NCBI GenBank assembly: GCA_045606805.1
Contig: JAZUSP010000047.1
Span: 5,087-69,086, forward strand
DNA from: Elusimicrobiaceae bacterium
GTDB taxonomy: Bacteria; Elusimicrobiota; Elusimicrobia; Elusimicrobiales; Elusimicrobiaceae
DNA: 64,000 nt
Direction: 5' to 3'
The notes beneath the pieces are model-generated. The model was not told the DNA's origin, made no database searches, and was given only the letters and a program-made list of their open reading frames with translations. This document shows, piece after piece, positions 6,519 through 54,990 of the stretch. The position numbers and the translations under genes are program-made. The stretch's first letter is position 1; each line of letters begins with the position of its first letter.

Positions 6519-7175
6519 TTAATCTACTGCTACTATATTATCACTCCAAGGGGAAGGAAGTGTCTTACAAAAAGCCTCTCCTTCTGGACTAAAATAGTCA
6601 CACTCATAGGACACTGAACCGCTAGCATTGATTCCAAATTGTAATGCCATGGATGGTAAATGTTCTCTGGCAATACTTTGTGCCATACACTTTCTAGTAT
6701 CACATCGGGCTGCATATTCCCAATACTTGGTAAAGCAAGAAGCATCCTGTTCTCTTAGACAAGATATGTTCATATCAAGAACGTCAGATTTTACTTCTCC
6801 CGTGAATGAAATACGGTCGTCCTCATTGGCAGGAATGCCGTTACGCAATATATATAAATGCATGGCTTTTTTAAAAGAATCCAGTGTGGTAATGGCCTCA
6901 ACTGCCCGTGTCTTTAGTACAGCTTTTTGGTATTGTGGCACGGCCACAGCGGCCAAAATACCGATAATGAGCACGACGACCAAGAGTTCAATGAGCGTAA
7001 AGCCGTGGGTCGTTGTCAATAAAGGTGTCATCCCCGAGGATTGTAATCGGGGATCTTCCACGCATTTATTAAATAAGGCTTGTTCCCTTTTGTTACAACG
7101 ACAAGCGTTGTAGATTCCCAACAGAGACTCTTGGGAATGACAGACTTTTTTACAAACGTCTTTTTGGTTTTTCAT
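6519..7175 (-). CDS. Type IV pilin-like protein 1 (PilE/PilA-like) with extended leader
   Basis: G|[25 protein letters not shown]-methylation motif after a 58-aa leader; Cys pairs in the C-terminal domain. Confidence 0.92.
   Translation of the reverse strand: MKNQKDVCKKVCHSQESLLGIYNACRCNKREQALFNKCVEDPRLQSSGMTPLLTTTHGFTLIELLVVVLIIGILAAVAVPQYQKAVLKTRAVEAITTLDSFKKAMHLYILRNGIPANEDDRISFTGEVKSDVLDMNISCLREQDASCFTKYWEYAARCDTRKCMAQSIAREHLPSMALQFGINASGSVSYECDYFSPEGEAFCKTLPSPWSDNIVAVD
7027..7141. repeat. GTCATCC-type double-hairpin REP/REPIN-like element inside the pilin 1 leader peptide
   Basis: GTCATCCCCGAG..TCGGGGATCTTCCACGC, then a spacer, then CAAGCGTTGTAGATTCCCAA..TTGGGAATGAC. Confidence 0.85.
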
Positions 7176-7455
7176 AAGTTTTGCTCCTGTTTATTTAATT
7201 TGCAATTTACCCACTTATGAAACCCCACGGAAAACGGCTACTATACCGGAGTTTCTTGCAGTAACCCATATACAACAGCCGTAGTTTACCATTGAAAATG
7301 ATAAACATTCGGTACAACTTCGCAGGTTTGCAATTCCGTTGTCGTTGTACCTTATAATTGGCTGTATTTTGGACTGCAAGAATGCCTTTAAAGGCTTCCC
7401 GTTTCTTAAACGGTTCCAAAAACAGATAAAATTGTACCTATAGTATAATAAAAAA
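7176..7455 (-). ncRNA. Conserved structured 5' leader of pilin cassette, copy L1
   Basis: TATACT -10, UCUGUUUUUGGAACCGUUUAAGAAACGG block, stems CUUGCAGU/ACUGCAAG, ACAGCC/GGCUGU, GGUACAAC/GUUGUACC, conserved GAAUGUUU and downstream AGCCGUUUU. Confidence 0.8.
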
Positions 7456-7572
7456 GGTTGGATTTTAGCAACCTTTTTTAGGGGAAAAGTTTTACGTAAT
7501 GAATATTTACGTCCGCCAAGCATCGGGTAGAATGTTCAAAATAGCGCGGTGCAAACGAAAGGGATGGACGTG

Positions 7573-7696
7573 TTTTCAGATTTGAGGCAGATTCGCACCG
7601 TATGTTGCCCCGCAGCGTACGTCTGCAAGACAACGCGTCAGCGTTGCAGGTACGCAAGGTGGGCAAATCGGTGCGAAGGTGCCCGAATGTGAAAAC
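7573..7696. repeat. ~125-bp palindromic element (GTAC-core family), copy 2
   Basis: Near-identical to 1931-2053, with compensatory changes in the apical stem (AACGCGTCAGCGTT vs AATGCGTCAGCATT). Confidence 0.9.
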
Positions 7697-7711
7697 TGTT
7701 AGTTCGTGGTG

Positions 7712-9263: not shown

Positions 9264-9267
9264 CTTT

Positions 9268-14434: not shown

Positions 14435-14946
14435 TTGAAAAATTAGTCCACTTAACGCCGCAAATAGACGTAAGCGCATTTGTGCACAAAACGGCGGTGG
14501 TCGTCGGGCAAGTGACGCTGGGGGAAAATGTGTCCGTGTTCCCGTGTGCCGTTTTGCGCGGTGATATTGCCGCCATAACCGTGGGGGAAAACTCCAACAT
14601 TCAAGATAACGCCTGCCTGCACGTCAACTACAATGCGCCGTGCCAAATTGGACGCGGGGTCAGCGTGGGGCACGGGGCCGTGGTGCACGGCAGTAAAGTG
14701 GGCGATAACGTGATTATCGGCATGAACGCGGTCATTATGGAAAGCGAAATCGGCCCCAACTGCATTATTGGCGCCGGGGCGGTGGTACCGGCAGGGAAAA
14801 ATATCCCGGCGGGGTCCCTAGTCATGGGCGTGCCGGCCAAGGTCGTGCGGCCTCTCGACGAGGACGAAGTAAACGGCATTTTGCAAAACGCACACGAGTA
14901 CGTAAAAGCCATCCCGTTATATAAAGAGCAAACGCAAGAATTATGA
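14431..14946 (+). CDS. Gamma-carbonic anhydrase family hexapeptide-repeat protein (YrdA-like)
   Basis: VLRGD, NIQDNACLH, VGHGAVVHG and LVMGVPAKVVR motifs. Confidence 0.92.
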   Translation: MIEKLVHLTPQIDVSAFVHKTAVVVGQVTLGENVSVFPCAVLRGDIAAITVGENSNIQDNACLHVNYNAPCQIGRGVSVGHGAVVHGSKVGDNVIIGMNAVIMESEIGPNCIIGAGAVVPAGKNIPAGSLVMGVPAKVVRPLDEDEVNGILQNAHEYVKAIPLYKEQTQEL

Positions 14947-15308
14947 AGAAAATTGTTTTAATTGAAGATTCCAAAGTGTTGGGCACAGCCCTTGTGGGTG
15001 CGCTCAAAGTAGAAGGCATTGAGGCGCACTGGGCGCAAAACGGCGCGGCGGGGGTTTCCCTGGCCAAAGCGCAAAAGCCCGATTTGATTTTGCTGGATTT
15101 GATGCTGCCTAAACTAAGCGGATTTGACGTCTGTAAAATGCTTAAAACGGACAACGCCACCTGGCGCATCCCCATTGTGATTATGTCCACGCTGACGGAC
15201 CCGCAGTCGCGCGAGCGCGCCACCGAGGCCGGGGCCGATTATTTTATCCCCAAGCCCTACGACTTGGCGGCCACGCTGACGGAAATTAAAAAGATTTTGA
15301 AAATATAG
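14943..15308 (+). CDS. Single-domain response regulator (receiver)
   Basis: IEDS, PDLILLDLMLP and FIPKP receiver motifs, with no output domain. Confidence 0.93.
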   Translation: MKKIVLIEDSKVLGTALVGALKVEGIEAHWAQNGAAGVSLAKAQKPDLILLDLMLPKLSGFDVCKMLKTDNATWRIPIVIMSTLTDPQSRERATEAGADYFIPKPYDLAATLTEIKKILKI

Positions 15309-16405: not shown

Positions 16406-16432
16406 ACACCCCCGCTTAAACCGCGGGGGTGT
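16406..16432. terminator. Terminator hairpin between the TPR gene and pilin 2
   Basis: ACACCCCCGC..GCGGGGGTGT. Confidence 0.75.
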
Positions 16433-16437: not shown

Positions 16438-17133
16438 TTAGTAATTGTATCGTATATTTTCTATAGGAGTGCTTTGTTCGGTTTCAGCTTGGCATATTTT
16501 ATGTTGTAGGGTTGTTGTATCGTTTCCATAGGCATAACAAGCTGTTTGTCCGGCATTTTTGTTGTTGTGATTAAGATTAATGAGGTAGCCTATTTGTCTG
16601 TTTCCGGCGGAATCATTTCGGATACAATAAACAGCTGTTTGTTCTTCTCTAATTTCCAAGATACATAATCCCCACGGGTAATAATGGACGCCGTAAATAT
16701 CATTTAACGTGGAAGACGTGGGAGTGGGAACATCTATGTCTAATTTGCTGATATCCGGGGTGTAGCTGTTGTTGGCTAAGTAATATACTTCCTCGGCATT
16801 GGCTAACGTTTTTACGAGGTTTTTAACGGTAGCAAAGCGGCTTTTGAGTACCGCTTTTTGGTACTGCGGCACCGCCACCGTGGCCAATATACCGATAATA
16901 AGTACCACGACTAACAACTCAATAAGAGTGAAAGCGCCGCTATTATATAAAGACGTCATTCCAAACCGGGGCATTGCTGTTGGCCCCGCCCCGTAGTGTC
17001 TTAATACGGGGTCTTGGAATCTTCCACGCATGTTGTTTATTAACGACAACGGCAAGCGTTGAAGATCCTGAATCGAGTTCAGGATGACTTGATTTTTTTG
17101 CGTTTGTCCCCGCCGGGTGTGTTTGTGTGTCAT
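16438..17133 (-). CDS. Type IV pilin-like protein 2 with repeat-derived leader
   Basis: A|[24 protein letters not shown] after a 67-aa leader. Confidence 0.92.
   Translation of the reverse strand: MTHKHTRRGQTQKNQVILNSIQDLQRLPLSLINNMRGRFQDPVLRHYGAGPTAMPRFGMTSLYNSGAFTLIELLVVVLIIGILATVAVPQYQKAVLKSRFATVKNLVKTLANAEEVYYLANNSYTPDISKLDIDVPTPTSSTLNDIYGVHYYPWGLCILEIREEQTAVYCIRNDSAGNRQIGYLINLNHNNKNAGQTACYAYGNDTTTLQHKICQAETEQSTPIENIRYNY
16955..17088. repeat. GTCATCC-type double-hairpin element with nested CCCCG..CGGGG insert, in the pilin 2 leader peptide
   Basis: GTCATTCCAAAC-[CGGGGCATT..CCCCGTAGTGTCTTAATACGGGGTC]-TTGGAATCTTCCACGC..GAAGATCCTGAATCGAGTTCAGGATGAC. Confidence 0.88.
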
Positions 17134-17410
17134 GTGTGTTCTCCTGTTATTTATTTATTTATCTGTTTAGGAACACACATAAAACGGCTGCTTTACTTGA
17201 GGCCTTGCAACGGAACTCATATAAAACAACCGCGGCATACCGCTTTTAAGGGCGGTAAACACTCGGCATAAAACGACGGGGTTATAAGGCCCGTTATCCT
17301 ATACCTGACACAGTTGTTTTTGGAGTTGCAAGGCACCGCGTGCGCAGTTCCCCGTTTCTTAAACGGTTCCAAAAACAGATAAAATTTACTACGTCTTTAT
17401 TATAACAAAA
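17134..17410 (-). ncRNA. Conserved structured 5' leader of pilin cassette, copy L2
   Basis: TATAAT -10, same 5' block, stems CCUUGCAAC/GUUGCAAGG and AAAACAACUG/CGGUUGUUUU, GAGUGUUU, downstream CAGCCGUUUU. Confidence 0.78.
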
Positions 17411-17436
17411 AACGCCCGCAAGTAGCGGGCGTTTTT
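17407..17436 (-). terminator. Terminator of the ispA-dxs-LOG operon, directly upstream of the pilin 2 promoter
   Basis: AAAAAACGCCCGC-AAGTA-GCGGGCGTTTTT. Confidence 0.8.
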
Positions 17437-21160: not shown

Positions 21161-21233
21161 AAAAACCCTCTAGTTAGGTATATATAAGTATTATACCTAA
21201 TTATGGGTGTGAAAAGGCATTTTGCTTGATTGG

Positions 21234-21989
21234 CTAATAGGGCATTGTATAAGCGCGTAGCGTTGAATAATTTGTGTCTGTTTGGAGGGGTGCACCAAAA
21301 AGTTGGGTGCAATAACTACCCGGCGTTTTTTGATAAACAAAACCGTTAGAATTGGTCCTTTCTGCACAGATAATTTTGGGTTCTCTCATATCTACAAAGA
21401 AACCGGCCCCGGCATAAGTACCGGAAATGCGCCCTAATTTTATAAAATGCCCATCCATTTGCAGGGCCCAATCTTGGTTAGAACGTACTACAGTTGACGT
21501 AGCATAGGTATCCCATAAAGTGTTTCCCGTCCAGGCGGTTAGGTCAATATCCAGTTCTTCAAAAGTGGTTGCGTATTTTCCATTAGCTAAGTAATAGGCG
21601 GCCTGGGCTTGAACCATTGATTTTAGCAACGGTAATACTTGGGCGGCTTTGCTCTTTTCGACGGCTTTTTGATATTGCGGCACAGCCACTGCCGCCAAAA
21701 TACCAATGATGAGGACAACGACTAACAGCTCAATAAGCGTGAATGCGGCAAGATGCCCCTTAGCCGGGGCATTGTCAGAGCCCGCCCCGCAGGGTTGTAG
21801 TGCGGGGCTAGCCTGACCTACCCGTTTAATAAGGGTAAAACCGCCGTTGTTAAATAAAGACGTCATTCCAAACCTGATTTGGAATCTTCCACGCGTGCTG
21901 TTAATCCACGACAACGACAAGCGTTGTAGATCCTGAATCAAGTTCAGGATGACTTTATTTTGTACAACTAACTTTTTGTTTTGCATCAT
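21234..21989 (-). CDS. Type IV pilin-like protein 3 with doubly extended leader
   Basis: Two FTLI motifs 32 aa apart; the second continues as [20 protein letters not shown]. Confidence 0.9.
21862..21953. repeat. GTCATCC-type double-hairpin element in the pilin 3 leader peptide
   Basis: GTCATTCCAAACCTGATTTGGAATCTTCCACGC..GTAGATCCTGAATCAAGTTCAGGATGAC. Confidence 0.88.
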
Positions 21990-22270
21990 GTTATTTCTCC
22001 TTGTATTTTTTCAATTTATCCGTCTTGGAAAAACTCATGCAAAAACGGCTCATGCCAGTTAAGCGTTTCCCCACCCTTAACCAACAACAGCCGTAATTTA
22101 CCGTACAGAACGATAAACATTCAGCACAACTTTTATTTGGGATCGGCAAATAAATGTTGTGCCTAATTACGCGCTGTATTTTGGAGGGGAAACGATTGCT
22201 TTTTAAAGCAAAAGTCCGTTTCTTAAACGGTTCCAAAAACAGATGAAATTGTCGTTTTCCTACTCTCTCA
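21990..22270 (-). ncRNA. Conserved structured 5' leader of pilin cassette, copy L3
   Basis: TAGAAT -10, 5' block, stems CGUUUCCCC/GGGGAAACG, ACAGC..GUAAUU/AAUUACGGCUGU, GGCACAAC/GUUGUGCU, GAAUGUUU, AGCCGUUUU. Confidence 0.78.
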
Positions 22271-22568
22271 TTCTACATAATTTCTGCCTAATTTGCACCC
22301 TAACTTTGTTACGCGCTTGCTTCAATACCTCCGCCCTAAAGGGCGGTTTACGCAAGTATTCTGCGCAAACGCAAGCCGCGTTAGGGCACAAATTAGTTTG
22401 AAATTATCACGCTGTTTGGGTGTGGCTGCTTGTAAACGTATTTTGAAATGGTTGTTTTTTGATATGATTTTTGCTACCATGAACGGAGGAGAAATCTATC
22501 TCTCTATATAAAAACGCCATATAAAAGGTTTTAGCGAGTTTGAACGGATTATAAAGGAGAACATCAAA

Positions 22569-23624
22569 ATGAAAAACAATAAACGGGGTTTTACCCTGAT
22601 TGAACTGTTGGTAGTAGTGCTTATCATTGGTATATTGGCGGCGGTAGCGGTGCCGCAGTATAAAAGAGCGGTAGAAAAAAGCCGCTTTAGTGCGTTAATT
22701 CCGGTAGCTAAAGGGGTGGCAACGGGGAACGAAAGTTATTATTTGGAGTCAAACACGTATGCAAATGATATCAAGTATTTAAGTGTAGATGCCAATGCAC
22801 AAGGAATAGAAATAAGTGTGGTAAATGATGACTCAAACGGGCTTAGTTATGTAAAAGCATATAATGAAACCGAATTACCAAATCATGACTATGTTGTCTT
22901 TCAAGAACACAGTGGAAATTTTGGAGGAGTTACGATGTGTGAAGCGGCGGATGAAGAAGCCGGAAAACTGTGCGAAGCGATGGGAGGGAGTATTTTGGAC
23001 GGAGCCGTAACTAGCGGGTGGATTGCGTATGCTTTAAGCGGCGATACGGCCGGAAGCAGTTTCCCCAGTGCGGGTGGTTTTAATTTGGGTGATTTTGACC
23101 AAGCTGCCCTAAATGAGGTATTGGCGGGGTTACCTACTGGAAGCACTTATTCTTATAACTTTGACATATGTGAAGCAATGGACTCGGCGACTAGTTGCGC
23201 CAAATCTACATTTAAGAAAATGGGATATTGTAGGGCGGGGCGACAATATAGTTGTGCAGGTTCTACCTTTAGCAATGGTGGTACATGTACTACCTTCTCT
23301 AATTTAGACGCAGAATATGCGTGTGCGGGTTCTACCTTTGGAGCTAGCGCAAAATGTCAAGGATATAATGCATATGGTTGTGCAGGAAGTACCTTTAGCG
23401 GATATAATAGTTACTGCCAGGGGGGAGCTGCGTACGGATGTGTGGGCTCTACCTTTAGCGGAGAGAATAGTTACTGCCGGGGAGATGTGGAGGACGGATG
23501 TACAGGTACAACCATTCAATCTGGGGCATATTGTACGGGGCAAGGGTGTGCAAACGCCGCGTATGAAGGAACCGGATGTTGCAAAGGAGATTATTGCGGC
23601 AGTGCGCCGAAATGTGCCTCTTAA
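22569..23624 (+). CDS. Type IV pilin-like protein 4 with Cys/Gly-rich repeat C-terminus
   Basis: MKNNKRG|FTLIELL short leader; repeated CxGSTF..YC units in the last ~140 aa. Confidence 0.9.
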   Translation: MKNNKRGFTLIELLVVVLIIGILAAVAVPQYKRAVEKSRFSALIPVAKGVATGNESYYLESNTYANDIKYLSVDANAQGIEISVVNDDSNGLSYVKAYNETELPNHDYVVFQEHSGNFGGVTMCEAADEEAGKLCEAMGGSILDGAVTSGWIAYALSGDTAGSSFPSAGGFNLGDFDQAALNEVLAGLPTGSTYSYNFDICEAMDSATSCAKSTFKKMGYCRAGRQYSCAGSTFSNGGTCTTFSNLDAEYACAGSTFGASAKCQGYNAYGCAGSTFSGYNSYCQGGAAYGCVGSTFSGENSYCRGDVEDGCTGTTIQSGAYCTGQGCANAAYEGTGCCKGDYCGSAPKCAS

Positions 23625-26382: not shown

Positions 26383-26395
26383 AATTTCTGCTTGG

Positions 26396-26446
26396 AAAAG
26401 GGGGGAGAAACGGTCTATTGGTGGCTGTTTCTCCCCCTCTTTTTTC
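26396..26446 (+). terminator. Terminator after the 25137-26382 operon
   Basis: AAAAGGGGGGAGAAAC..GTTTCTCCCCCTCTTTTTT. Confidence 0.75.
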
Positions 26447-26640: not shown

Positions 26641-26675
26641 TTTATGCATATTATTAGGTCGATTTTTGGGTTTAC

Positions 26676-34864: not shown

Positions 34865-35150
34865 ATGCTTTTTCTCCTAACTATAATTTCAATTTACCTG
34901 CTTTGGAAAAACGCATACAAAAACGGCTATGATGCCTGAGTACTCAGCAAAGAACCCAATACAAAACAGCCGTAGTTTTCCGTCGAAACGAAAAACATTC
35001 GGCACAAGAAAACGGGTTTCGAAGGTCCGTTCCCTTGTGCCTTAAATGGCTGCTCTTGGCTTGCTGAGTGCTTTTGTTGGCAAAAGCTCTGCGTTTCCCA
35101 AACGCTTCCAAAAACAGGATAAATTGTACCTACATTATAACATAAAAAAA
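34865..35150 (-). ncRNA. Conserved structured 5' leader of pilin cassette, copy L6
   Basis: TATAAT -10; stems ACUCAGCAA/UUGCUGAGU, CAGCC/GGCUG, GGCACAAG/CUUGUGCC, GAAUGUUU, UAGCCGUUUU. Confidence 0.8.
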
Positions 35151-35252
35151 GGATTATTCCCGAACTTGTTTCGGGATCTTCCACGCCTGTTGTTGGTTGT
35201 TGCTATGTGCAAACGGCAAGCGTCGAAGATCCTGAGTCAAGCTCAGGATGAC
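35151..35252. repeat. Intergenic GTCATCC-type double-hairpin element
   Basis: TTCCCGAACTTGTTTCGGGATCTTCCACGC..CAAGCGTCGAAGATCCTGAGTCAAGCTCAGGATGAC. Confidence 0.85.
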
Positions 35253-35340
35253 AAATTAAAGAAATGGCTCACTTACGTTGCAATAAACTAGTTAAAATTT
35301 GCGTTATAAATTGTAACTTAATTCTTGGTACAATATACTT

Positions 35341-36693: not shown

Positions 36694-36702
36694 GGAGCAT
36701 TT

Positions 36703-37932: not shown

Positions 37933-37945
37933 AACAGGGGGCCTT

Positions 37946-38668
37946 ATGGCGTTAATTGACACGCGCGATTTATACAAAATTTACCAAGTGGGCGACGTGG
38001 AAGTGCGCGCCTTAAACGGCGTAAGCGTTTCTATTGACCCCGGCGAATTTGTGGCTGTGATGGGGCCGTCCGGCTCGGGCAAAAGTACCTTTATGAACAT
38101 TTTAGGGTGTTTGGATAAGCCCACGCACGGCACGTATATTTTAGACGGAATAGATGTGACCGCAACGGACCTTTCTAAACTGGCCGGGGTGCGTAATCGC
38201 AAAATCGGCTTTGTGTTCCAGGGGTTTAACTTAATTAAACGCACCACGGCACTTGAGAATGTGGAACTGCCCATGATTTACAACTACACCCCCGCCGCCC
38301 AGCGCCGCAAAAAAGCCATGGAAGCGTTAGAGGCCGTTGGCCTAGCGCAGCGGGCGGACCACTTGCCTAATCAACTCTCCGGCGGGCAGCAACAGCGCGT
38401 AGCCATTGCGCGCAGTTTAGTGTGCGACGCACCTATTATCTTTGCCGACGAGCCCACCGGCAACTTAGACACCAAAATGAGTATTGAGGTCATGGACCTG
38501 TTCACGCGACTTAATAAAGAAATGGGCAAAACCATTATTTTAATCACGCACGAGCCCGATATTGCCCGGTACGCCACGCGCCTTATTAAATTTAAAGACG
38601 GGCAGAAAATCAGCGACGAAAAACAAACCCCTTGTGGGGCTATTTGCGCGCCCAAGGAGCAGTTATGA
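37946..38668 (+). CDS. MacB/LolD-family ABC ATP-binding protein
   Basis: GPSGSGKST, LSGGQQQRVAIAR and ADEPTGNLD motifs. Confidence 0.95.
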   Translation: MALIDTRDLYKIYQVGDVEVRALNGVSVSIDPGEFVAVMGPSGSGKSTFMNILGCLDKPTHGTYILDGIDVTATDLSKLAGVRNRKIGFVFQGFNLIKRTTALENVELPMIYNYTPAAQRRKKAMEALEAVGLAQRADHLPNQLSGGQQQRVAIARSLVCDAPIIFADEPTGNLDTKMSIEVMDLFTRLNKEMGKTIILITHEPDIARYATRLIKFKDGQKISDEKQTPCGAICAPKEQL

Positions 38669-39891
38669 TAGACGCATTTTTATCGGTATTTAAGATTTCC
38701 CTAAAGTCCATTTTTGCCAACAAAATGCGTGCCGCGCTGACGAGCTTGGGCATTATTATTGCCGTGGCCGCCGTTATTACTGTGCTGGCTGTGGGTAATG
38801 CCACCAAAAAAAGTATGCTAGACCGTATTTCCAACATGGGCACGAACATCCTTTTTCTGCGCCAGCCGTGGGATTTAGATTCGTCTATTTCCTCGCCCAA
38901 AGACGTAACGATGGATGATGTGCTGGCCATTCGCCAAACGGAGGGTGTAGCCGGGGCCGCACCGTATATCCAAACCAGTTTTAATGTCAAATACAAAAAC
39001 ACGAGTGTTAGTTTAAGCGCACTGGCGACCGATACGGACATTTTTAACGTGTACGATTGGACCGTGGAAAAGGGCCGCCCATTTACCGAAAAAGAGATAG
39101 ATGAGTATGCGCAAGTCATGGTCATTGGTGCCAATTCCGCACAGACCATTTTTGGTGACGTGGACCCGCTGGGCAAAACGGTGGTACTGGATAACATCCC
39201 GTTTACGGTAGTCGGTATTACCAAAAAAACCGGGTCTAGCGGCTTTGGGTTTAATATCGACGAAGGCGTGCTAATTCCCTATACTACGGGCAAGGTAAAA
39301 TTAAATTCCGGTTGGAAAACCACGAGCCGCCGCGCACTGGACCGCGTGGTTATCCGCGTGGCCGACTTTAACAAAATTGAAAACACGAAAGTAGATATTT
39401 CCAACGCCGTGCGCAACGTGCACCGCATCCACCCCTTAGGCAAGGACGATTTTCAGCTGGATGATATGGCCTCTATGGTGGAGCAAGCCAAAAGTATGGG
39501 CACTATGATTAGCCTGTTTTTGGGCGTCATCGGCATTGTGTCTTTGATTGTAGGCGGCATTGGGGTGATGAACATTATGCTTGTATCCGTGACCGAGCGC
39601 ACGCGCGAAATTGGCATCCGTATGGCCATTGGCGCGACAAGCTGGAATATCCGCCTGCAGTTTTTAGTAGAATCCATGACGCTTTGTTGTATGGGAGGCG
39701 CTGTGGGAATTCTGCTGGGCGTGGGGTGTTCCCTTATCGTTTCCAAATATATGGCGTTAGCCGCGCATGTGAGTGTGTGGGCGATATTACTCGCGGCCGG
39801 ATTTTCGGCGGCGACGGGAGTTTTCTTTGGGTATTATCCGGCGTATAAGGCCTCTAAGCTAACACCCATTGACGCTTTGAGATACGAGTAA
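38665..39891 (+). CDS. MacB-family ABC permease
   Basis: NKMRAALTSLGIIIAVAAV and GGIGVMNIMLVSVTERTREIGIRMAIGA motifs. Confidence 0.95.
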   Translation: MIDAFLSVFKISLKSIFANKMRAALTSLGIIIAVAAVITVLAVGNATKKSMLDRISNMGTNILFLRQPWDLDSSISSPKDVTMDDVLAIRQTEGVAGAAPYIQTSFNVKYKNTSVSLSALATDTDIFNVYDWTVEKGRPFTEKEIDEYAQVMVIGANSAQTIFGDVDPLGKTVVLDNIPFTVVGITKKTGSSGFGFNIDEGVLIPYTTGKVKLNSGWKTTSRRALDRVVIRVADFNKIENTKVDISNAVRNVHRIHPLGKDDFQLDDMASMVEQAKSMGTMISLFLGVIGIVSLIVGGIGVMNIMLVSVTERTREIGIRMAIGATSWNIRLQFLVESMTLCCMGGAVGILLGVGCSLIVSKYMALAAHVSVWAILLAAGFSAATGVFFGYYPAYKASKLTPIDALRYE

Positions 39892-39935
39892 TTTCTTCCT
39901 AATTTGGCGCAAAAAAGCCAATCATAAAAAGCACC

Positions 39936-40083
39936 GTCATCCTGAGTCGCGGCATTATCACTAGCCGCGCCCCGCATAGTGTCTTAATACGGGGTCCCAG
40001 GATCTTCAACGCTTGCTGTTTTGCTGTAACAGCGACAACCACAACAACATGCGTGGAAGATCCCAAATCAAGTTTGAGATGAC
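39936..40083. repeat. Intergenic GTCATCC-type double-hairpin element with the same nested insert as in pilins 2 and 5
   Basis: GTCATCCTGAG-[..CCCCGCATAGTGTCTTAATACGGGGTC]-CCAGGATCTTCAACGCTTGC..GCGTGGAAGATCCCAAATCAAGTTTGAGATGAC. Confidence 0.85.
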
Positions 40084-40174
40084 TATATGATTTCGAAAAA
40101 TCAGCTTATCGTAAATTTTACCCTGTGTTTGGGGAAGTACTGACAAGTTCTACAGGCCCAAAGAATTTTTCATA

Positions 40175-40771
40175 CTAATTGGCAAAGGCGAGCGTTTGGC
40201 ATAATTTTTTACCATAATCTGTACGCCCGTCACAAACGATTTTATTGGGTGCTGTGGAATGATGCGCAAAATAATATATTATAAGTAAATCTGGATTGGA
40301 TGCAGGATAAGAAAGTGTTACCATCCAAGCCTTGGGATCTGCCTGTCTTCCTGAGATGTTATCAATCTCGCTAGAAGGACATTCGATGATGGACGCATCC
40401 TCTGTACTCATTTTGCAATTTCCCGGAATATCAAAGTCTAACTTCGAGATGTTGGATGCATATCCTCCGTTTGCCAAATAATATACTTCTTGTGCTTTGC
40501 GAACGTTGTCAACTATGGGTAGCAAAGTGCTTACACGGCTTTTATCTACAGTTAACTTGTATTGCGGCACGGCCACTGCCGCTAAAATGCCGATAATAAG
40601 CACAACGACTAACAACCCAGGGAGCGTCAAACCTCGGGCCACACACTTCGCCATCCCGCAGGCCTGTAGCGCGGGATATAAGTGTGGGCCCGCCCCTATA
40701 CCCCGCACAGTTACACTGCGGGGTGACGAGGGGCAGAAATTGATTACTTCGATAGATTTTTCTTTTTTCAT
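40175..40771 (-). CDS. Type IV pilin-like protein 7 with degenerate methylation motif
   Basis: G|[24 protein letters not shown] instead of FTLIELL; 47-aa repeat-derived leader. Confidence 0.82.
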   Translation of the reverse strand: MKKEKSIEVINFCPSSPRSVTVRGIGAGPHLYPALQACGMAKCVARGLTLPGLLVVVLIIGILAAVAVPQYKLTVDKSRVSTLLPIVDNVRKAQEVYYLANGGYASNISKLDFDIPGNCKMSTEDASIIECPSSEIDNISGRQADPKAWMVTLSYPASNPDLLIIYYFAHHSTAPNKIVCDGRTDYGKKLCQTLAFAN

Positions 40772-41066
40772 ACATGTTCTCCTAAGTTAATTTGCAATTT
40801 AACCTGCTTGGAACACGTATAAGAACGGCCGACACACTTGAGCTACTCGACTAACCCAAATATAACAGCCGTAGTTTACTGATATTACACAAGGTAATAC
40901 CAGCAAACATTCAGCACATTGCTTTCAAGGGATCAGCAAGAAAACAATGTGCCTTAAACGACTGTTCTTGGAGTCGAGTAAGCTAATCTTTATAATTAGC
41001 GTTCCGTATTCCACATACGGTTCCAAAAACAGAGTAGAAATTGTACCTATAGTATAATAAAAAAAT
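40772..41066 (-). ncRNA. Conserved structured 5' leader of pilin cassette, copy L7
   Basis: TATACT -10; stems UACUCGACU/AGUCGAGUA, AACAGUCGU/ACGGCUGUU, GGCACAUU/AAUGUGCU, GAAUGUUU, GGCCGUU. Confidence 0.8.
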
Positions 41067-41133
41067 GGTAGAAATTCAAACCTCCGGTTTTGTTTTTAAA
41101 ACCGGGGGTTGCTCAGTTCGTAAAGCAGAAAAC

Positions 41134-44009: not shown

Positions 44010-44585
44010 ATGACAAACTTGAGCGCGCAAAATGATGATGAGTTGATACAAACTTTTGTTTCCGGGCAGCCGCAGGCTTTTGAAGAGCTGGTATTGCGTT
44101 ACAAAAACAGTTTGTACCAATATATTATGAGCCTGGTGCACGATGAAGGAGCCGCCGGGGATTTATTCCAGGACGTGTTTTTGGCCCTTTATAAGCACGC
44201 GGCGGACTTTAAGGCTCAGGGCAAAGTGAAAGCGTGGCTGTTTTTAACGGCGCGCAACAAAACGCTCAATTATTTTCGGGACCGCAAAGAACACATTTCT
44301 TTGGACGAACCCGACGAAGAAGGAAACGAATTTTGGCACGAAGTATTGCCGGACGGCGAGGCAGACCACCTGGAGCAGTTAACCAGCCGGGAAGGGTTAG
44401 AAAGGCTCAAAAAAGCCATTGACAGTTTGCCCCCCCGCCAAAAGGAAGCGATTTATTTGCGGCAGTATTTATCGTTTGCGGAAATGGCGCAAGTGCAACA
44501 CCGTCCGTTGGGTACGGTACTGGCCGATTGTCACCGCGCAGTGGCGAAAGTGCGCCACTTATTAGCAAGTGAGGAGTTTTTATGA
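44010..44585 (+). CDS. ECF RNA polymerase sigma factor
   Basis: Region 2 (AGDLFQDVFL, KAWLFLTARNKTLNYFR) and region 4 (LPPRQKEAIYLR..SFAEMA..GTV). Confidence 0.92.
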   Translation: MTNLSAQNDDELIQTFVSGQPQAFEELVLRYKNSLYQYIMSLVHDEGAAGDLFQDVFLALYKHAADFKAQGKVKAWLFLTARNKTLNYFRDRKEHISLDEPDEEGNEFWHEVLPDGEADHLEQLTSREGLERLKKAIDSLPPRQKEAIYLRQYLSFAEMAQVQHRPLGTVLADCHRAVAKVRHLLASEEFL

Positions 44586-44887
44586 AACGCGAAATGTTTG
44601 AAGATGTCATTAGCCAAGCTCTAGCCGCCCCGGCCGCTCCGGCCGAGTTGGTGGATAAAGTATTTGCCAAAACTACGCGCCGCCAAAGCTGGTTTGCCCG
44701 CTATAAAATGGCGTTAGTCGGCGGGGTAGCGGCAGTAGTAGTGGGGGTGTGCGTGGGCGTGGGGCATTATGTGCATACAACGCCGTCGTACGATAAGGCC
44801 CAACTGGTGGTATATATGAGCCAAACAGCGCAAGACGAATATGCCACTTTTTTAAGTGATTTGGAGTTGTTTGAACAAGAATTCTAG
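44582..44887 (+). CDS. Putative membrane anti-sigma factor
   Basis: Overlaps the sigma gene stop; single TM helix. Confidence 0.7.
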   Translation: MKREMFEDVISQALAAPAAPAELVDKVFAKTTRRQSWFARYKMALVGGVAAVVVGVCVGVGHYVHTTPSYDKAQLVVYMSQTAQDEYATFLSDLELFEQEF

Positions 44888-44897
44888 GAGGTTAAGT

Positions 44898-45530
44898 ATG
44901 AAGAAACTTATGTTCGCGTTAGTCGTGGCGGCGGTAGCCATGCCCGCGTTAGCGCAAGAAGTAAAAGCCCCGGTGGGCAAAGACGCCCCCGCCATATCCC
45001 GCACAGAAGCTATGCGGGATGACATGCGGGACCACGAAGCCTTTAAAAAAGCCCGTGAAGAACACAAAGCTCAACTAAAGGCGACGGAAGAAAAAATGGA
45101 AAAACTTGTGAAAGAATATAACAAGTTAAAACCCGGCAAGAAAAAAGACGCCAAACGCGCCGAAATTGCACAGGAACTGCGCGCCATGCACGAGAAACAA
45201 CTGGAGTTCAAAAAAGACCAGTTAGTGAAATTTGAGGAACGCCTCTCGCGCATGAAAGCGGAATTTGCAAAAGAAAACTCCGCCGAAGGCCGGGCCGAAT
45301 GGGTCAACCAAAAAACGGACGCTTTGATTGCCGCCGATGGCGACTTAAAAGCCGTTTTCGGCCACCCCGGTAAGCACCGCCCGCACATGGGTAAAGACGG
45401 TGAGTGCCCCTGCATGGGCGAGAAGAAAGATTGTCCGTGCAAAAAAGGGTTTATGGGCAAAGGCCCCAAAGGGTTTGGCCACAAAGGCCCGCGCGGTCCT
45501 CGCCCGGATGGGCCGGACTTTGACGACTAA
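44898..45530 (+). CDS. Secreted helical protein, Spy/CpxP-like, with His/Cys/Gly-rich tail
   Basis: Signal peptide MKKLMFALVVAAVAMPALA, charged coiled-coil core; cotranscribed with the ECF pair. Confidence 0.6.
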   Translation: MKKLMFALVVAAVAMPALAQEVKAPVGKDAPAISRTEAMRDDMRDHEAFKKAREEHKAQLKATEEKMEKLVKEYNKLKPGKKKDAKRAEIAQELRAMHEKQLEFKKDQLVKFEERLSRMKAEFAKENSAEGRAEWVNQKTDALIAADGDLKAVFGHPGKHRPHMGKDGECPCMGEKKDCPCKKGFMGKGPKGFGHKGPRGPRPDGPDFDD

Positions 45531-45558: not shown

Positions 45559-45585
45559 ACGCCCCCGCAATCACTTGCGGGGGCT
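45559..45585. terminator. Terminator between the ECF operon and pilin 8
   Basis: GCCCCCGCAA-TCAC-TTGCGGGGGC. Confidence 0.78.
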
Positions 45586-45590: not shown

Positions 45591-46070
45591 TTATAAAGGG
45601 ACCCAACAAGTACGTGCATTATTACAGCTTGTGTTTAGTAACGATAAACATAGCTTTTTCTTATATGTATTGCCTCCATACCAACATATTACGTGATCTT
45701 GGTCATAATATTTTTCTAAGGTGGGAAGTTGGCCTTTTATATCTTCAATTTTTGTACTGTTATGGATTCCGCCTTCACGGTATAACTTATATTGCACGTC
45801 ACTATAAATTACCTGAGTTGCACTTGTATTAGTAGTTCCGGCAGGTAATTCTACATCTAACTTACTAAAATCGTCGGCATGATCTCCGTTTGCCAAATAA
45901 TAGACTTGTTGGGCAGTATCAATGGCTTTAATAACGGGTAGTACCCGCGATAGGCGTGCTTTATCTACAGCTATCTTATATTGCGGCAGGGCCACCGCGG
46001 CCAAAATGCCGATGATTAAAACAACTACTAACAACTCAATGAGGGTAAACCCCCGTTTTTTCCATTCCAT
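45591..46070 (-). CDS. Type IV pilin-like protein 8 (short leader)
   Basis: MEWKKRG|[24 protein letters not shown]; two C-terminal Cys pairs. Confidence 0.93.
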   Translation of the reverse strand: MEWKKRGFTLIELLVVVLIIGILAAVALPQYKIAVDKARLSRVLPVIKAIDTAQQVYYLANGDHADDFSKLDVELPAGTTNTSATQVIYSDVQYKLYREGGIHNSTKIEDIKGQLPTLEKYYDQDHVICWYGGNTYKKKLCLSLLNTSCNNARTCWVPL

Positions 46071-46356
46071 AAACATGCTCCTAATTTTTTAATTTCAATT
46101 TTCTTCTGTTTATGAAACGTAATAAAAACGACTGGACATAAACCAGGTCTCTACACAGACACCCATTCACACCAGTCGTGGCCTTTTGTCATAGACAAAA
46201 AACACTCAGCACTAAACAACAGGCTCATGACTTCCTGTCATCTAGTGCTTAAAAACGACTGTTCTTGACTGTGTAGAGAGTTCCTAACGGAACTGTCCCG
46301 TATTCCACATACGGTTCAAAAACAGATTAAATTGTACCTACAGTATAATAAAAAAG
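46071..46356 (-). ncRNA. Conserved structured 5' leader of pilin cassette, copy L8
   Basis: TATACT -10; stems CUCUACACAG/CUGUGUAGAG, CAGUCGU/ACGACUG, AGCACUA/UAGUGCU, GAGUGUUU, downstream CAGUCGUUUU. Confidence 0.8.
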
Positions 46357-46396
46357 CACGCATTTTTCAATGCGTGCTTAAAGAGAATGCGGCGTT

Positions 46397-47582: not shown

Positions 47583-47912
47583 TTAGTTTTTGCTCGGCAT
47601 CAAATAGAGCACGAACAAGATGAGCCAGCCGATTACCGGCAGAATCAACAGAAGTAGTAACCACGGGGTAAACCCGCCGTCACGCAAACGGCGCGCGGCA
47701 ATCCCTAACGAAGGGAGCAAAATAGCCAGTTGGCACACAAAATACAAAATGTTGCCTGCCTTACCAAAAAAACTCAGTATCAAAGACAACACTAAAAATA
47801 CTAAGAAGCTAAACAGCACCCACAACCAAAAGTGTTTGCGGTCCGCTTTCCCGGCAAAATCAATGTAATGATTTTTAATCGGGTCAATAAAATACGTGCT
47901 AAATACTTTCAT
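47583..47912 (-). CDS. DUF805 (YhaH-like) membrane protein
   Basis: FAGKADRKHFW and LPSLGIAARRLRD motifs. Confidence 0.9.
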   Translation of the reverse strand: MKVFSTYFIDPIKNHYIDFAGKADRKHFWLWVLFSFLVFLVLSLILSFFGKAGNILYFVCQLAILLPSLGIAARRLRDGGFTPWLLLLLILPVIGWLILFVLYLMPSKN

Positions 47913-52135: not shown

Positions 52136-52137
52136 TT

Positions 52138-54081
52138 ATGGAATCACAAACACTTCGCTCACTTTATGAGATTAAAGCCGGTAACACGGCTCAAATTACC
52201 GATATTCAAACCTCGGCCAAAATGGCCCAAAAATTAGCCGCCATGGGCATTGCCCGCGGCCAGTTTATCAAACGTAAAAAAGGCTCTTCCCCTGTGGTGG
52301 TGGAAGTATCCGGCACCGAGGTTGCCATCGGGCGTGAAACTGCCAAAAAGATTTTGGTTACCGCTAAAAAAAATACATTTTTGTTGGCGGGTAACCCTAA
52401 CGTGGGGAAAAGTTTAATTTTCTCGCGCCTTACGGGCATTGGAATTATTTCGTCCAACTTCCCGGGCACAACGGTGGGGCTTAATTACGGCACTACGCAA
52501 TTTAAAGGCGAAACGTACGATATTATTGATATTCCCGGCCTCTACCGCCTAGAAGAAGAATGGCTCATAGAAGGCAAAAAGCGCAATTTATTTAAAGAGC
52601 TGACGTATGATTTTATCGTGTGTGTGGCGGATGCGTCGCACTTGGAGCGCAATTTGTTTTTTGTGCTGGAAATTTTGCAACTGCAAAAGCCGCTTATTTT
52701 GATGCTCAATAAATTTGACGAGGCGCAGCGCAAAGGCATCACAATTGACGTCAAAAAGCTTTCCAAACTCTTGGGCATCCCCGTGATTGCCACCGTAGCC
52801 ACGACGGGTGAGGGCCTTAAAGAATTGGAACGCGAGGCTATGAAGCTGATTAATGACCCTGTGCAAACACCGTCCATTGCCATCCCCCCCACCGCCGAAG
52901 AAAAATGGCAAACCATTGGGCGGATTATTCATGAGGTGCAACAAGTCAAGCACAAACACCCGTCGTTTTGGGAACACTTACAGGGGTGGGCCACGGCGCC
53001 GGTGACCGGGCTGCCGATAGCGTTACTCACGCTGATTGTGTCGTTTTTCCTCGTGCGGTTTGTGGGAGAGAGTTTGATTGATTTGCTAGACCCGCTGTAC
53101 GAAAATTATTATTTTCCATTTTTGGAAAAACTGTTGGCCCCCATTAAAGATAATATGTTGGGGCTACTTTTGCTCGGCGACGGCGGCGATAATTATTTTG
53201 GCGTGCTGACCGACGGGCTACATATTGCCTTAGTGGACGTGATGCCTTACGTGTTTGCGTTTTATGCGTTACTCGGCTTTTTGGGCGAGCTGGGGTATCT
53301 GCCGCGCTTGGCGGTGCTGTTGGACGGCATTTTGCATAAAATCGGTTTGCACGGGTATGGGTCTTTGCCTATTATGCTTGGCTTTGGGTGCAAAGTGCCC
53401 GCCGTGATGGGCGTGCGCGTGCTGGAAACGCGGCGCGAGCGCGTGATTGCGCTGGCGCTTATTTTGGTGCTGGCACCGTGCATTTCGCAAACGGCCATGA
53501 TTATTTCTATTTTATCGCCGTACGGCGTGAAATATATGCTCATGGTATTTGGGGCACTCGTTATAAACGGGATTATTATCGGCACCTTATTAAACCGCTT
53601 GATGAAAGGCGAAACACCCGAGCTGTTTATGGAAATTCCGTCGTGGCAGATCCCGCAACTCCGCCCCTTGGCGCGCAAAATTTGGATCCGCATGAAAGAA
53701 TATTTTGCCGACGCGCTGCCGCTTATTTTAGCCGGGATTGTGTTTGTGGACATCATGCAACTGGCCGGTATTACGGGGTGGCTCACGAAAATTTTACGTG
53801 CGCCGATGGAGTGGGCCTTAGGTTTGCCCGCTGACGTTACCCCGCTGTTGCTCCTCGGGTTTTTGCGCAAAGATGTATCTATTGCTTTGTTAGAGCCGTT
53901 TAATTTAACCCCGCAAGCACTGGTGGTGGCGTGTGTGTTTATGAGTATGTACATGCCGTGCATCGCCACGTTTTTTGTGATGCTGCGCGAGAGCGGCTGG
54001 AAAGATACGTTGCGTGTGGTGGCGCTGACGCTGGTGTTTTCCACGGCGACGGCTATGCTACTGCGGGTGGTGCTGGGGTAA
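52138..54081 (+). CDS. feoB: FeoA-FeoB fusion ferrous iron transporter
   Basis: N-terminal FeoA-like SH3 domain (KLAAMGI..IAIGRETAKKI), GNPNVGKS, NFPGTTV, DIPG, NKFD and gate motif GFGCKVPA. Confidence 0.93.
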   Translation: MESQTLRSLYEIKAGNTAQITDIQTSAKMAQKLAAMGIARGQFIKRKKGSSPVVVEVSGTEVAIGRETAKKILVTAKKNTFLLAGNPNVGKSLIFSRLTGIGIISSNFPGTTVGLNYGTTQFKGETYDIIDIPGLYRLEEEWLIEGKKRNLFKELTYDFIVCVADASHLERNLFFVLEILQLQKPLILMLNKFDEAQRKGITIDVKKLSKLLGIPVIATVATTGEGLKELEREAMKLINDPVQTPSIAIPPTAEEKWQTIGRIIHEVQQVKHKHPSFWEHLQGWATAPVTGLPIALLTLIVSFFLVRFVGESLIDLLDPLYENYYFPFLEKLLAPIKDNMLGLLLLGDGGDNYFGVLTDGLHIALVDVMPYVFAFYALLGFLGELGYLPRLAVLLDGILHKIGLHGYGSLPIMLGFGCKVPAVMGVRVLETRRERVIALALILVLAPCISQTAMIISILSPYGVKYMLMVFGALVINGIIIGTLLNRLMKGETPELFMEIPSWQIPQLRPLARKIWIRMKEYFADALPLILAGIVFVDIMQLAGITGWLTKILRAPMEWALGLPADVTPLLLLGFLRKDVSIALLEPFNLTPQALVVACVFMSMYMPCIATFFVMLRESGWKDTLRVVALTLVFSTATAMLLRVVLG

Positions 54082-54091
54082 AAATAAACTT

Positions 54092-54709
54092 TTATTGTTC
54101 GCTATAACTAGAGGGCATATCGTAGTATGTCCAACCGTTTGGATTCTCTTTTGGATTTCCATCACTTAATGTGGCGCAGACTTTATTTTCTAAGTATTTT
54201 GTTGTTATTGCTTGGCATAGGTAGCGATTTGTTAAAGGATAAAAACTTAAGCGAAGAGATGAATTTAGCGTATAACTTATTTTTTTAAAATCTTCTTCAA
54301 ATATGTATTTATCTTTATTCGGGATATCAATATCAAGTCCTTCCCAAGAATATATATATTCTCCATTGGCTAGGTAATAGGATTGTTGTGCTTTGCGCCA
54401 AGCGTCCAAACCGACTAGCCCTTCCATGGCGCGGGATTTTAGAACTGCCACTTGATATTGCGGTACGGCCACGGCGGTTAAAATACCAATAATAAGCACG
54501 ACGACTAAAAGCTCGATGAGGGTAAAGCCCTTTCTTCCTCCCTTGCGGAGGAAGTGGTCCGCAGGACCGATGGAGGGGCTCATTAAGGAGAATGCCTTAT
54601 AGGCCCCCCTTTTTGTCGCTACCGCGACCCCCGACAAAAGCCCTCGGGGGCAGGCTCTTTCCCCGCAAGGGGGACAAGAAACGACATTTACATTTTTGTT
54701 GTTTTTCAT
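54092..54709 (-). CDS. Type IV pilin-like protein 9 with repeat-derived leader
   Basis: G|[24 protein letters not shown] after a 61-aa leader. Confidence 0.92.
   Translation of the reverse strand: MKNNKNVNVVSCPPCGERACPRGLLSGVAVATKRGAYKAFSLMSPSIGPADHFLRKGGRKGFTLIELLVVVLIIGILTAVAVPQYQVAVLKSRAMEGLVGLDAWRKAQQSYYLANGEYIYSWEGLDIDIPNKDKYIFEEDFKKISYTLNSSLRLSFYPLTNRYLCQAITTKYLENKVCATLSDGNPKENPNGWTYYDMPSSYSEQ
54534..54680. repeat. CCCC(T/G)CAAGGGG-type palindromic element in the pilin 9 leader peptide
   Basis: TTCCTCCCTTGCGGAGGAAG, GGTCCGCAGGACC and CCCCGCAAGGGG hairpins; related to 33311-33359. Confidence 0.72.
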
Positions 54710-54990
54710 AAATCTTTCTCCTTATTTTTATTTCTTCAATTTGTCTGTTTATGAAACCCAACAAAAACGGCTATTAAGCTCAAGCCTACATACTGACCCA
54801 AAAATAACAGCCGTGGTTTTTTGCGTGTGCAAAAAACACTCGGCACAAAACGAACGGGTAATTAGTCCGTTCATCTTGTACCTAAAAACGACTATTTTTG
54901 GCGTATGTATGGCCGGGATTGCTCCCGGCGATCCGTTTCTTAAACGGTTCCAAAAACAGGATAAAATTGTACCTATAGTATAATAAAAAA
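54710..54990 (-). ncRNA. Conserved structured 5' leader of pilin cassette, copy L9
   Basis: TATACT -10; 5' block; stems UACAUAC/GUAUGUA, AAUAGUCGU/ACGGCUGUU, GGUACAA/UUGUGCC, GAGUGUUU, UAGCCGUUUU. Confidence 0.8.

Follow-up and report, generated by a model that had tools for sequence, protein, structure and literature searches.

A shared structured leader with two predicted alternative folds precedes dispersed type IV pilin genes in gut Elusimicrobiaceae

The DNA analysed here is a 64,000-nt stretch of contig JAZUSP010000047.1 from an Elusimicrobiaceae bacterium (the window; all coordinates are positions within it), in which type IV pilin genes lie scattered among housekeeping genes and share an upstream leader of ~210 nt. 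Nine genes have a prepilin motif, eight on the minus strand (p1 to p8) and one on the plus strand (p9), and the leader is present in exactly eight copies, all on the minus strand and each ahead of one of p1 to p8, p9 being without it. A degenerate pattern taken from the alignment gave 8 matches in the window against 0 expected, and a profile hidden Markov model (HMM) of the leader likewise gave 8, with E-values from 1e-27 to 1e-49; pairwise, the copies are 54-74% identical at the nucleotide level. Every one of the eight units has a -10 box (TATACT, TATAAT or TAGAAT), a leader, a Shine-Dalgarno site, a start codon and a full N-terminus, and the leader always stands in one orientation, 40-70 nt before the Shine-Dalgarno site or start, a second promoter not being evident. 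The original prediction for this DNA had described nine pilins in 64 kb, eight minus-strand leader cassettes and a leaderless plus-strand pilin, and had contrasted the cassettes, as modular units with their own promoters, with the silent pilS copies of Neisseria; all of this was borne out.

The nine products combine a G/A(-1)-F(+1)-T-L-I-E(+5) motif with a hydrophobic alpha-1 helix, as expected of type IV pilins, F1 and E5 having been lost in p6. PF07963 (N_methyl) matches all nine, seven of them above its cut-off, with p3 at 20.5 against 21.2 bits and p6 at 16.2 bits, and TIGR02532 was above its cut-off in all four proteins tested (p2, p5, p7 and p9). Matches in the PDB to PilA and PilE span only the first ~60 residues, corresponding to the alpha-1 helix. 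The pilin bodies have 33-44% GC, compared with 49% for the window, and are 17-39% identical in amino acid sequence to one another, in keeping with the earlier description of them as AT-richer and highly divergent.

Read 5' to 3', the leader region consists of the -10 box, ACAAUUU, segment A (CUGUUUUUGG), hairpin P1a with a GNRGA loop, the variable hairpin P1b, a hypervariable segment X of ~10 nt, segment B (CCAAAAACAGCCG), the 16-bp hairpin P4, GARU, hairpin P5, segment C (ACGGCUGUUnUnUUUGGG), X', segment D (CUCAAAUAUAACAGCCGU) and a U-run, after which ~20-35 nt, often with AAAUUG, lead to the Shine-Dalgarno site and the AUG. In the p1 leader (7229-7436, minus strand; -10 TATACT at 7442-7447) A lies at 7416-7425, X at 7373-7382, B at 7359-7372, P4 at 7311-7351, P5 at 7284-7306, C at 7265-7282, X' at 7253-7262 and D at 7234-7252, with the U-run next. 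The corresponding positions in the p5 leader (34918-35128, minus strand; -10 TATAAT at 35134-35139) are 35108-35117 for A, 35060-35069 for X, 35047-35059 for B, 35001-35041 for P4, 34975-34996 for P5, 34955-34973 for C, 34943-34952 for X', 34923-34941 for D and 34918-34922 for the U-run.

The hairpins stay paired in the eight-copy alignment while their sequence changes. Statistics on structure refer throughout to 106 leader copies, a metagenome set serving as independent check. Standard pairs fill 89.6% of cells, compared with 74.4% when partners are shuffled and 40-49% when they are slid; changes on both sides are seen in 1169 cells (376 after shuffling), and the covariation score is 0.481 against 0.216. 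P1a, P4 and P5 covary, and most of the signal comes from P4, P5 and the helix X:X', in which all four Watson-Crick pair types are found at every position. The longest complementary run between X and X' is 10.07 nt for a leader's own partner and 5.35 nt for permuted partners, and the metagenome set gave 9.67 and 5.06 nt. G-U pairs are tolerated throughout the leader helices.

Segments A and C are rich in U and segments B and D in A, all four complementing one another, and modelling of these pairings indicates that the leader has two mutually exclusive global folds. In the predicted fold I, A (CUGUUUUUGG) pairs with B (CCAAAAACAG) and C (ACGGCUGUU..GGG) with D (CUC..AACAGCCGU); together with the U-run, which directly follows C:D in 103 of the 106 copies, the latter helix takes the shape of an intrinsic terminator, and its inner pairs covary. 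In the predicted fold II, B pairs with C (96.6% paired), and as X directly precedes B and X' directly follows C, this helix would be coaxially continuous with the 10-bp hypervariable X:X'; fold II encloses P4 and P5 in a three-way junction and occupies the 5' half of the terminator. Since A, B, C and D each pair with two partners, their sequence is conserved, whereas helices with a single partner drift freely. In p7, B, C and D have changed in a coordinated manner (CAGUCG, CGACUG and CAGUCG), a G-to-A change in C being matched in both B and D. Under constrained folding the mean of fold I is -84.7 kcal/mol, compared with a minimum free energy (MFE) of -86.1 kcal/mol; fold II is ~7 kcal/mol weaker on average and the more stable of the two in 18 of the 106 copies. 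For the p8 stretch at 54755-54972 (218 nt) the MFE is -83.9 kcal/mol (z -6.7) and the MFE structure is fold I. Computationally, then, the leader has what is expected of an attenuator, being a covarying 5' leader of fixed orientation with terminator and antiterminator pairings that exclude one another.

Two further pairings concern the ends of the leader. An outer helix A:E, obtained with RNAalifold from eight copies, was no better than composition-matched shuffles across the 106 copies (8.3 against 8.0 nt) and was therefore dropped in favour of A:B. A 5' CAAUUU, ~8 nt upstream of A, and a 3' AAAUUG, 20-34 nt past the U-run, tend to occur in the same copies (36/77 against 1/33, Fisher p 2e-6), and they may pair in an outer helix that would enclose the leader as a whole in read-through transcripts, immediately ahead of the Shine-Dalgarno site.

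The apical loop of P4 is self-complementary in most copies. A palindrome of at least 6 nt is present in 74 of the 106 loops and one of at least 4 nt in 97, compared with 4.3% of composition-matched shuffled loops for 6 nt or more and none of 106 for the loops of P5, P1a and P1b; in the metagenome set 26 of 33 P4 loops are palindromic. The most frequent arrangement, in a loop of ~9 nt, has 2 nt before and 1 nt after a 6-nt palindrome, and more than 12 different palindromes occur, including UAAUUA, UCAUGA, UUAUAA, UUCGAA, UUGCAA, CUCGAG, UCUAGA, GUGCAC and GAUC. Seven different ones are used by the eight leaders of the window, all on the minus strand, whose P4 loops are AAUUGCAAA in p1, CCUUAUAAC in p2 (leader 17179-17392; -10 TATAAT at 17399-17404), GCCGAUCCC in p3 (22040-22262; -10 at 22270-22275, in an alternative upstream promoter, TGTAGAAT), a loop with UCUAGA in p4 (29158-29350, a truncated variant without P1a and P1b; -10 TAGAAT at 29357-29362), CCUUCGAAA in p5, GCUGAUCCC in p6 (40820-41045; -10 TATACT at 41051-41056), AGUCAUGAG in p7 (46123-46336; -10 TATACT at 46342-46347) and ACUAAUUAC in p8 (54762-54971; -10 TATACT at 54977-54982). 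Avoidance of shared palindromes within one genome was not seen, and a second copy of the P4 palindrome in cis, found in 14% of leaders against 7% in the control, is no general feature.

A self-complementary hairpin loop makes sense mainly for pairing between two RNA copies, and leader RNAs probably kiss or dimerise through P4. The dimerisation initiation site (DIS) of HIV-1 is similar in having a long hairpin, a ~9-nt loop with the same 2+6+1 nt layout and many alternative palindromes; it differs in that the element described here is a bacterial mRNA leader with mostly AU-rich palindromes (UAAUUA, UUAUAA, UCAUGA), for which a packaging role is inconceivable and the dimer is a prediction. Another RNA that dimerises through a self-complementary loop is oskar mRNA. 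It is conceivable, if rather unlikely, that the P4 kissing loop and the private X/X' 'barcode' together make the leader a gene-specific RNA self-recognition device, in which terminated or accumulated leaders would act in trans on nascent copies from the same gene and block or trigger the transition from fold I to fold II. If true, each member of a surface-protein family would have its own RNA-level dosage feedback or winner-takes-all expression, with no need for a protein regulator.

The leader extends well beyond the window. More than 113 loci matched in species-representative genomes, nearly all of them from uncultured Elusimicrobiaceae or Elusimicrobiales, with hosts among the matches listed that include rumen, human, horse, bird and termite guts; ~10 of the listed genome matches lie in other phyla and are due to chance. 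A further 67 loci came from metagenomes, in a scan for which A and B were the only anchors. The leader was found more than 200 times in genomes and metagenomes of gut Elusimicrobiales. Six pattern matches in viral or phage contigs were chance, and viral carriage was rejected. The nearest relatives of the window among the matches listed are uncultured Elusimicrobiaceae known from metagenome-assembled genomes. Rfam 15 gave no match to the leader over the window, either at the gathering score or at E<=0.1, the p5 leader returning only noise (E>1), and the full-text literature gave no description of such an Elusimicrobia leader RNA, of its non-pilin targets or of the long translated leader peptides discussed below. 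Judged from sequence and covariation, the leader represents a hitherto undescribed family of structured RNAs in gut Elusimicrobiales. An exact-sequence look-up of one protein encoded in the window gave no record, and no public sequencing run shared more than 6% of its words with the window. In a sheep metatranscriptome mapped to a rumen relative, coverage was seen only over flanking genes.

Among 121 assessable leaders, 98 precede pilins and 23 other genes, the latter encoding lipoproteins or secreted proteins, GT2 and GT8 glycosyltransferases, a zinc-ribbon membrane protein, a DUF805 protein and others. Because it also stands before non-pilin genes, the module reads as a regulatory RNA for envelope genes and not as a pilin-specific mobile cassette. 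In the same blocks, 21 pilin genes out of a total of 109 resemble p9 in having no leader. The window also has a DUF805 gene, at 47583-47912, which is without a leader; in a termite-gut relative (L067:3351-3601; L-numbers denote leader-bearing loci of related genomes) the leader lies directly upstream of DUF805, and the regulon thus differs between lineages.

We lean towards the view that the window holds an old, dispersed family of pilins that are individually transcribed, each gated by a copy of a new leader RNA of attenuator type, by which other envelope genes are gated as well, and we consider the shared module to be, on balance, regulatory and not mobile. The leader would then be a transcription attenuator or riboswitch-like switch that determines whether RNA polymerase continues into the pilin or other envelope gene. 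In such a scheme A:B would form first, leaving X single-stranded as a toehold for X', and a race between X'-led formation of B:C and formation of C:D would set the level of termination. Mutually exclusive helices, one of them a hairpin with a U-run before the regulated gene, are also found in trp-type 1:2/2:3/3:4 attenuators and in riboswitch expression platforms, and the c-di-GMP-II riboswitch upstream of Clostridioides difficile pilA1 is a precedent for leader RNAs that control pilus and surface genes. Unlike the known attenuators and riboswitches, the leader is without an Rfam match and without a leader-peptide ORF (open reading frame) inside the switch, occurs in dozens of copies per genome and has a hypervariable, gene-specific X:X' helix built in.

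Several points weigh against this view. We infer transcript ends, termination and read-through, as well as all mechanism beyond pairing potential, from sequence, and no candidate ligand or protein partner emerged from the analysis. The helices A:B and outer C:D combine strong conservation with thin covariation (2/10 and 2/9 pairs changed on both sides), and part of their conservation is imposed by the search pattern. It should also be noted that X:X' could instead be a tertiary or intermolecular contact outside fold II. As regards P4, the variety of palindromes within one genome is at the level of random sampling, and kissing or dimerisation is deduced from palindromy alone. Lastly, prepilin leader peptides of 45-114 aa are to our knowledge unprecedented, and their processing is assumed.

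A leader that does not switch could be a small RNA in its own right, ~210 nt long and ending at the U-run, or else a fixed 5' structure by which the mRNAs of highly expressed surface genes are stabilised and insulated. Promoter, compact fold and terminator do make up a complete small-RNA gene, a 5'-terminal helix such as A:B is typical of stabilising 5' stem-loops, and fold I alone provides most of the predicted stability. However, a static fold I leaves the strong covariation of X:X' without a role, and as a 10-bp contact with a C:D loop of ~15 nt the helix would be sterically awkward; the constant orientation and distance to the Shine-Dalgarno site or start, with no second promoter in evidence, also argue against it, and the unusual degree to which A, B, C and D are conserved is explained if each has to pair with two partners. 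We regard a non-switching leader as unlikely. An element acting at the DNA level, either a recombination site of attC-like or cruciform type or a mobile promoter resembling a miniature inverted-repeat transposable element (MITE) with the inverted ends CAATTT..AAATTG, would account for the many inverted repeats and palindromic hexamers, for the co-occurrence of CAATTT and AAATTG at the two ends (the 36/77 against 1/33 given above) and for the presence of the module before unrelated genes. Yet its place between -10 box and Shine-Dalgarno site is fixed and strand-specific, the tolerance of G-U pairs fits RNA and not duplex or cruciform DNA, the copies are old and kept by compensatory change whereas active MITEs are near-identical, and no integrase or transposase was found nearby, so that we hold this to be very improbable. 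Nor is this an integron cassette, in which attC stands at the 3' end of a promoterless ORF and an IntI integrase is involved: the element lies 5' of the gene and has its own promoter, and no integrase was found in the window.

The original prediction proposed that promoter, leader and pilin spread together as mobile cassettes, copied by gene conversion or through single-stranded DNA or RNA into a dispersed antigenic-variation library, and it is here that synteny with related genomes bears on the matter. Five of the eight cassette sites are common to other species: that of p1 corresponds to L113 and L007 (next to infB), p3 to L020 (upstream of ispA-dxs), p4 to L026 and L110 (next to mutY), p5 to L098 (same neighbours) and p7 roughly to L095 (near cobB). 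At the same site, bodies are 17-29% identical in amino acids and leaders 61-70% in nucleotides, compared with 75-97% amino acid identity for flanking proteins, and homology with the relatives ends at the ends of the flanking genes. The exception is p4 and L026, whose bodies are 49% identical and whose segment from leader to mutY is 85% identical at the nucleotide level by BLAST; these two look vertically inherited. Coding identity between the related genomes is 76-86% at the nucleotide level with saturated synonymous sites, so that replacement and divergence in place are inseparable in these genomes, and the dissimilarity of same-site cassettes fits either replacement at fixed sites or fast divergence in place. 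In L007 (1-8000) the tolC-macAB block abuts the infB-facing cassette, whereas the two are 33 kb apart in the window (4034-7481 and 35341-41065), which implies an inversion with end points at cassette or repeat-element borders. L020 has no p9 at the syntenic site, where hydF is also inverted; together with the rearrangement ends at cassette borders in L007 and L020, this marks the intergenic spots as recombination-prone.

On the side of mobility, same-site cassettes are mostly no closer than paralogues despite their well-conserved flanks, homology stops where the flanking genes end and rearrangements end at cassette borders. The conserved leader and N-terminal helix could act as recombination anchors, and a duplicated GFTLI in p3 and p4 points to recombination or insertion at that place. 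Recent spread as units was not supported: the window holds no recent pair of cassettes (leaders at most 74% and bodies at most 39% identical, the latter at noise level, with N-terminal coding stretches at 71-89%), leader and body distances are uncorrelated (rho -0.07, window cassettes), sites are shared across species and p4/L026 looks vertical, the strand bias is not general, and the leader also serves non-pilin genes. Divergence in place can moreover explain the dissimilarity, given saturated synonymous sites, and no recombinase or reverse transcriptase, G-quadruplex (G4) motif, or silent copy was found in the window, nor any phage copy. Comparing trees of leaders and bodies, one of the checks proposed, was uninformative because the distances are saturated, and the comparison of syntenic loci cut both ways, with sites kept across species and contents mostly at the level of paralogues. 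The mobile antigenic-variation reading is thus weakly supported, and we consider it improbable. In Neisseria, pilE and pilS likewise comprise many divergent pilins with a conserved N-terminal stretch, scattered among housekeeping genes with small repeats; in the window, by contrast, every leader copy has a promoter, a Shine-Dalgarno site and a full N-terminus and so none is a promoterless silent copy, gene conversion is precluded by the divergence of the bodies (at most 39% identical), a G4 motif is absent, and none of the copies can be singled out as an expression locus. The Elusimicrobium minutum genome paper reportedly describes an expanded family of PilE-like genes, and many dispersed prepilin-type genes in an Elusimicrobia genome are the point of likeness; the organism of the window is a different one, with ~49% GC.

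Terminator adjacency and strand were likewise offered as rules of cassette placement, and as such they are local. A hairpin with a T-run ends 25-29 nt before the leader of p1 (7450-7481, a bidirectional terminator-like hairpin with A-run, GGTTG..CAACC and T-run that abuts the p1 promoter), p2 (17407-17436), p7 (46352-46380) and p8 (54983-55014), and the p5 promoter abuts a palindromic repeat; the hairpin upstream of p6 (41081-41108) is without a classical tail, and p3 and p4 have none, both carrying the extra promoter segment TGTAGAAT. In relatives only 23 of 123 leaders (19%, against 8.8% at random positions) have an upstream terminator-like hairpin, with 24-31 nt spacing to the leader where present, and we rejected it as a general leader feature. 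A strand or replichore rule was also rejected: 8-kb blocks with at least two leaders are co-oriented in 14 cases and mixed in 9, and the sign of GC skew gave 51 against 34 (p ~0.08). The proposed dif site between the cassettes did not hold either, as no dif-like site was found in the window and the cumulative GC skew rises monotonically, so that no replichore switch is seen within it. At their 3' ends the cassettes are bounded as described, by an 11-bp GC-rich hairpin at 6481-6506 between the infB stop (6454) and the p1 stop (6519), a 10-bp hairpin at 16406-16432 between a convergent tetratricopeptide repeat (TPR) gene and the p2 stop, a terminator hairpin at 45561-45584 after the p7 stop, and, for p8, the convergent feoB stop at 54081, 10 nt from its own at 54092. 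An AT-rich hairpin with a T-run lies at 21165-21208 between the p3 stop and the ispA start, and a bidirectional terminator-like hairpin at 28396-28423 just after the p4 stop. With strong hairpins or convergent stops following the pilin genes, the claim that pilins never lie within an operon is reasonable.

A second unusual feature of the pilin genes lies within their coding sequence. In p1 to p4, p6 and p8, 46-81 in-frame codons separate the Shine-Dalgarno-proximal AUG from the G/F cleavage motif, which falls at residues 46-87 of these six ORFs; the leader peptides of p5, p7 and p9 are 6-8 aa long, and a typical prepilin leader peptide is short, basic and about 5-30 aa in length. Across the leader-linked pilins the length is bimodal, with 49 cases of 3-16 aa and 41 of 20-114 aa, the long class (43%) arising by repeat insertion. 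In 42 cases with long spacing the median open stretch upstream is 64.5 codons in the pilin frame, compared with medians of 5.5 and 9 for the two alternative frames; as the frame stays open through the insertions, in ~90% of long cases, these are read through.

All ORFs of p1 to p8 are on the minus strand. That of p1 (6519-7175, 218 aa) has its G/FTLIE motif starting at 7004 and a palindromic-repeat extension of 57 codons (7005-7175), and that of p2 (16438-17133, 231 aa) a motif starting at 16935 and an extension of 66 codons (16936-17133), formed by a composite repeat whose inverted ends are GTCATCC..GGAATGAC and which has a further insert nested in it. In p3 (21234-21989, 251 aa) the 81-codon extension (21747-21989) includes GGFTLIKR.., with GFTLI occurring twice around a further insert, and in p4 (28433-29137, 234 aa) the 69-codon extension (28931-29137) begins with a degenerate prepilin motif (MNQLYTRWGFTQ; ..TRWGFTQ..). 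Extensions that start with a degenerate prepilin signal (M..TRRG/FT..) are also seen in L028 and L106. The p8 ORF (54092-54709, 205 aa) has a 60-codon extension (54530-54709). In p6 (40175-40771, 198 aa), with a 46-codon extension and the degenerate motif GLTLPGLL, frame and leader are intact; lacking F1 and Glu5, it may be inactive, a decaying or repurposed copy. The short leader peptides are MKKENQ/G in p5 (34388-34864, 158 aa) and MEWKKR/G in p7 (45591-46076). The leaderless p9 (22569-23624, plus strand), at 351 aa, is twice as long and has Cys-rich C-terminal repeats of ~20 aa each, encoded by a 60-nt tandem repeat at 23369-23488.

The extensions are built of palindromic elements nested in one another, their ends being inverted (GTCATCC-hairpin-GGATCTTCAACGC ... 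GCGTGGAAGATCC-hairpin-GGATGAC). Further copies are intergenic, at 35151-35260 (beginning GTCATCCTGAGC.., directly upstream of the p5 promoter), at 39972-40083 (a composite repeat, the same element as in the p2 and p4 extensions) and at 26597-26638, in addition to those inside p1 to p4 and in the genome of L084. As a short multicopy element with inverted ends that is found both between genes and in frame within ORFs, it resembles repetitive extragenic palindromic (REP) sequences, MITEs and the Rickettsia palindromic element (RPE). The in-frame RPE of Rickettsia is the nearest parallel; like the Correia elements of Neisseria, it is a small palindromic repeat with inverted ends that lies between genes and also in frame within them, where it is translated or co-transcribed. 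The insertions in the window differ in that they concentrate ahead of the peptidase cleavage site, are nested and are flanked by duplicated pieces of GFTLIE. This arrangement suggests that repeat elements or recombination target the conserved GFTLIE coding stretch. Insertions are presumably tolerated because prepilin peptidase removes the leader peptide, and it is plausible that the cleaved leader peptide is a safe harbour for them.

The neighbours of the cassettes in the window are ordinary housekeeping genes, namely cdsA, nusA, infB, ddpX, era, serC, uvrA, dxs, ispA, hydF, mutY, tolC-macAB, an extracytoplasmic function (ECF) sigma factor, cobB, feoB and pepT. A Pfam and/or NCBIfam scan of the 44 larger non-pilin ORFs gave no recombinase, transposase or reverse-transcriptase domain, as had been stated before, and left ~10 of them without any family match; domain scans of the 64 kb gave no prepilin peptidase and no pilus or type II secretion system (T2SS) assembly gene. 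A stand-alone response-regulator receiver gene lies among the cassettes (14943-15308), and the ECF sigma factor is accompanied by two small ORFs, possibly including an anti-sigma factor (44010-45530); both are candidate regulators and neither has a link to the leaders. Two long stretches without a convincing ORF stand out in an otherwise compact region: 33704-34387 (~680 nt), directly downstream of p5 and with no counterpart in the syntenic L098, and 26383-27488 (~1.1 kb), where a palindromic repeat copy is found together with a segment that L110 has as a tandem repeat. A 74-nt unit occurs in three tandem copies with 90-91% identity (1709-1933), and beside it a 134-nt segment (1929-2062) recurs 5.6 kb away, just upstream of the p1 cassette (7571-7704, 93%); neither has an Rfam match or an obvious ORF.

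We believe that these observations move the focus from the mobility of the cassettes to their regulation. The leader is a large, multicopy and strongly covarying RNA family without a counterpart in Rfam, from a poorly studied gut phylum, and it would link pilins, lipoproteins and glycosyltransferases into one post-initiation control circuit. Its two-fold design, hypervariable helix and DIS-like loop are unusual among bacterial leaders and may make it a tractable system for studies of RNA-RNA self-association. The in-frame insertions in turn predict prepilins with leader peptides of 45-114 aa, a measure of how much length prepilin peptidase would tolerate, and suggest that a cleaved leader peptide can harbour selfish DNA.

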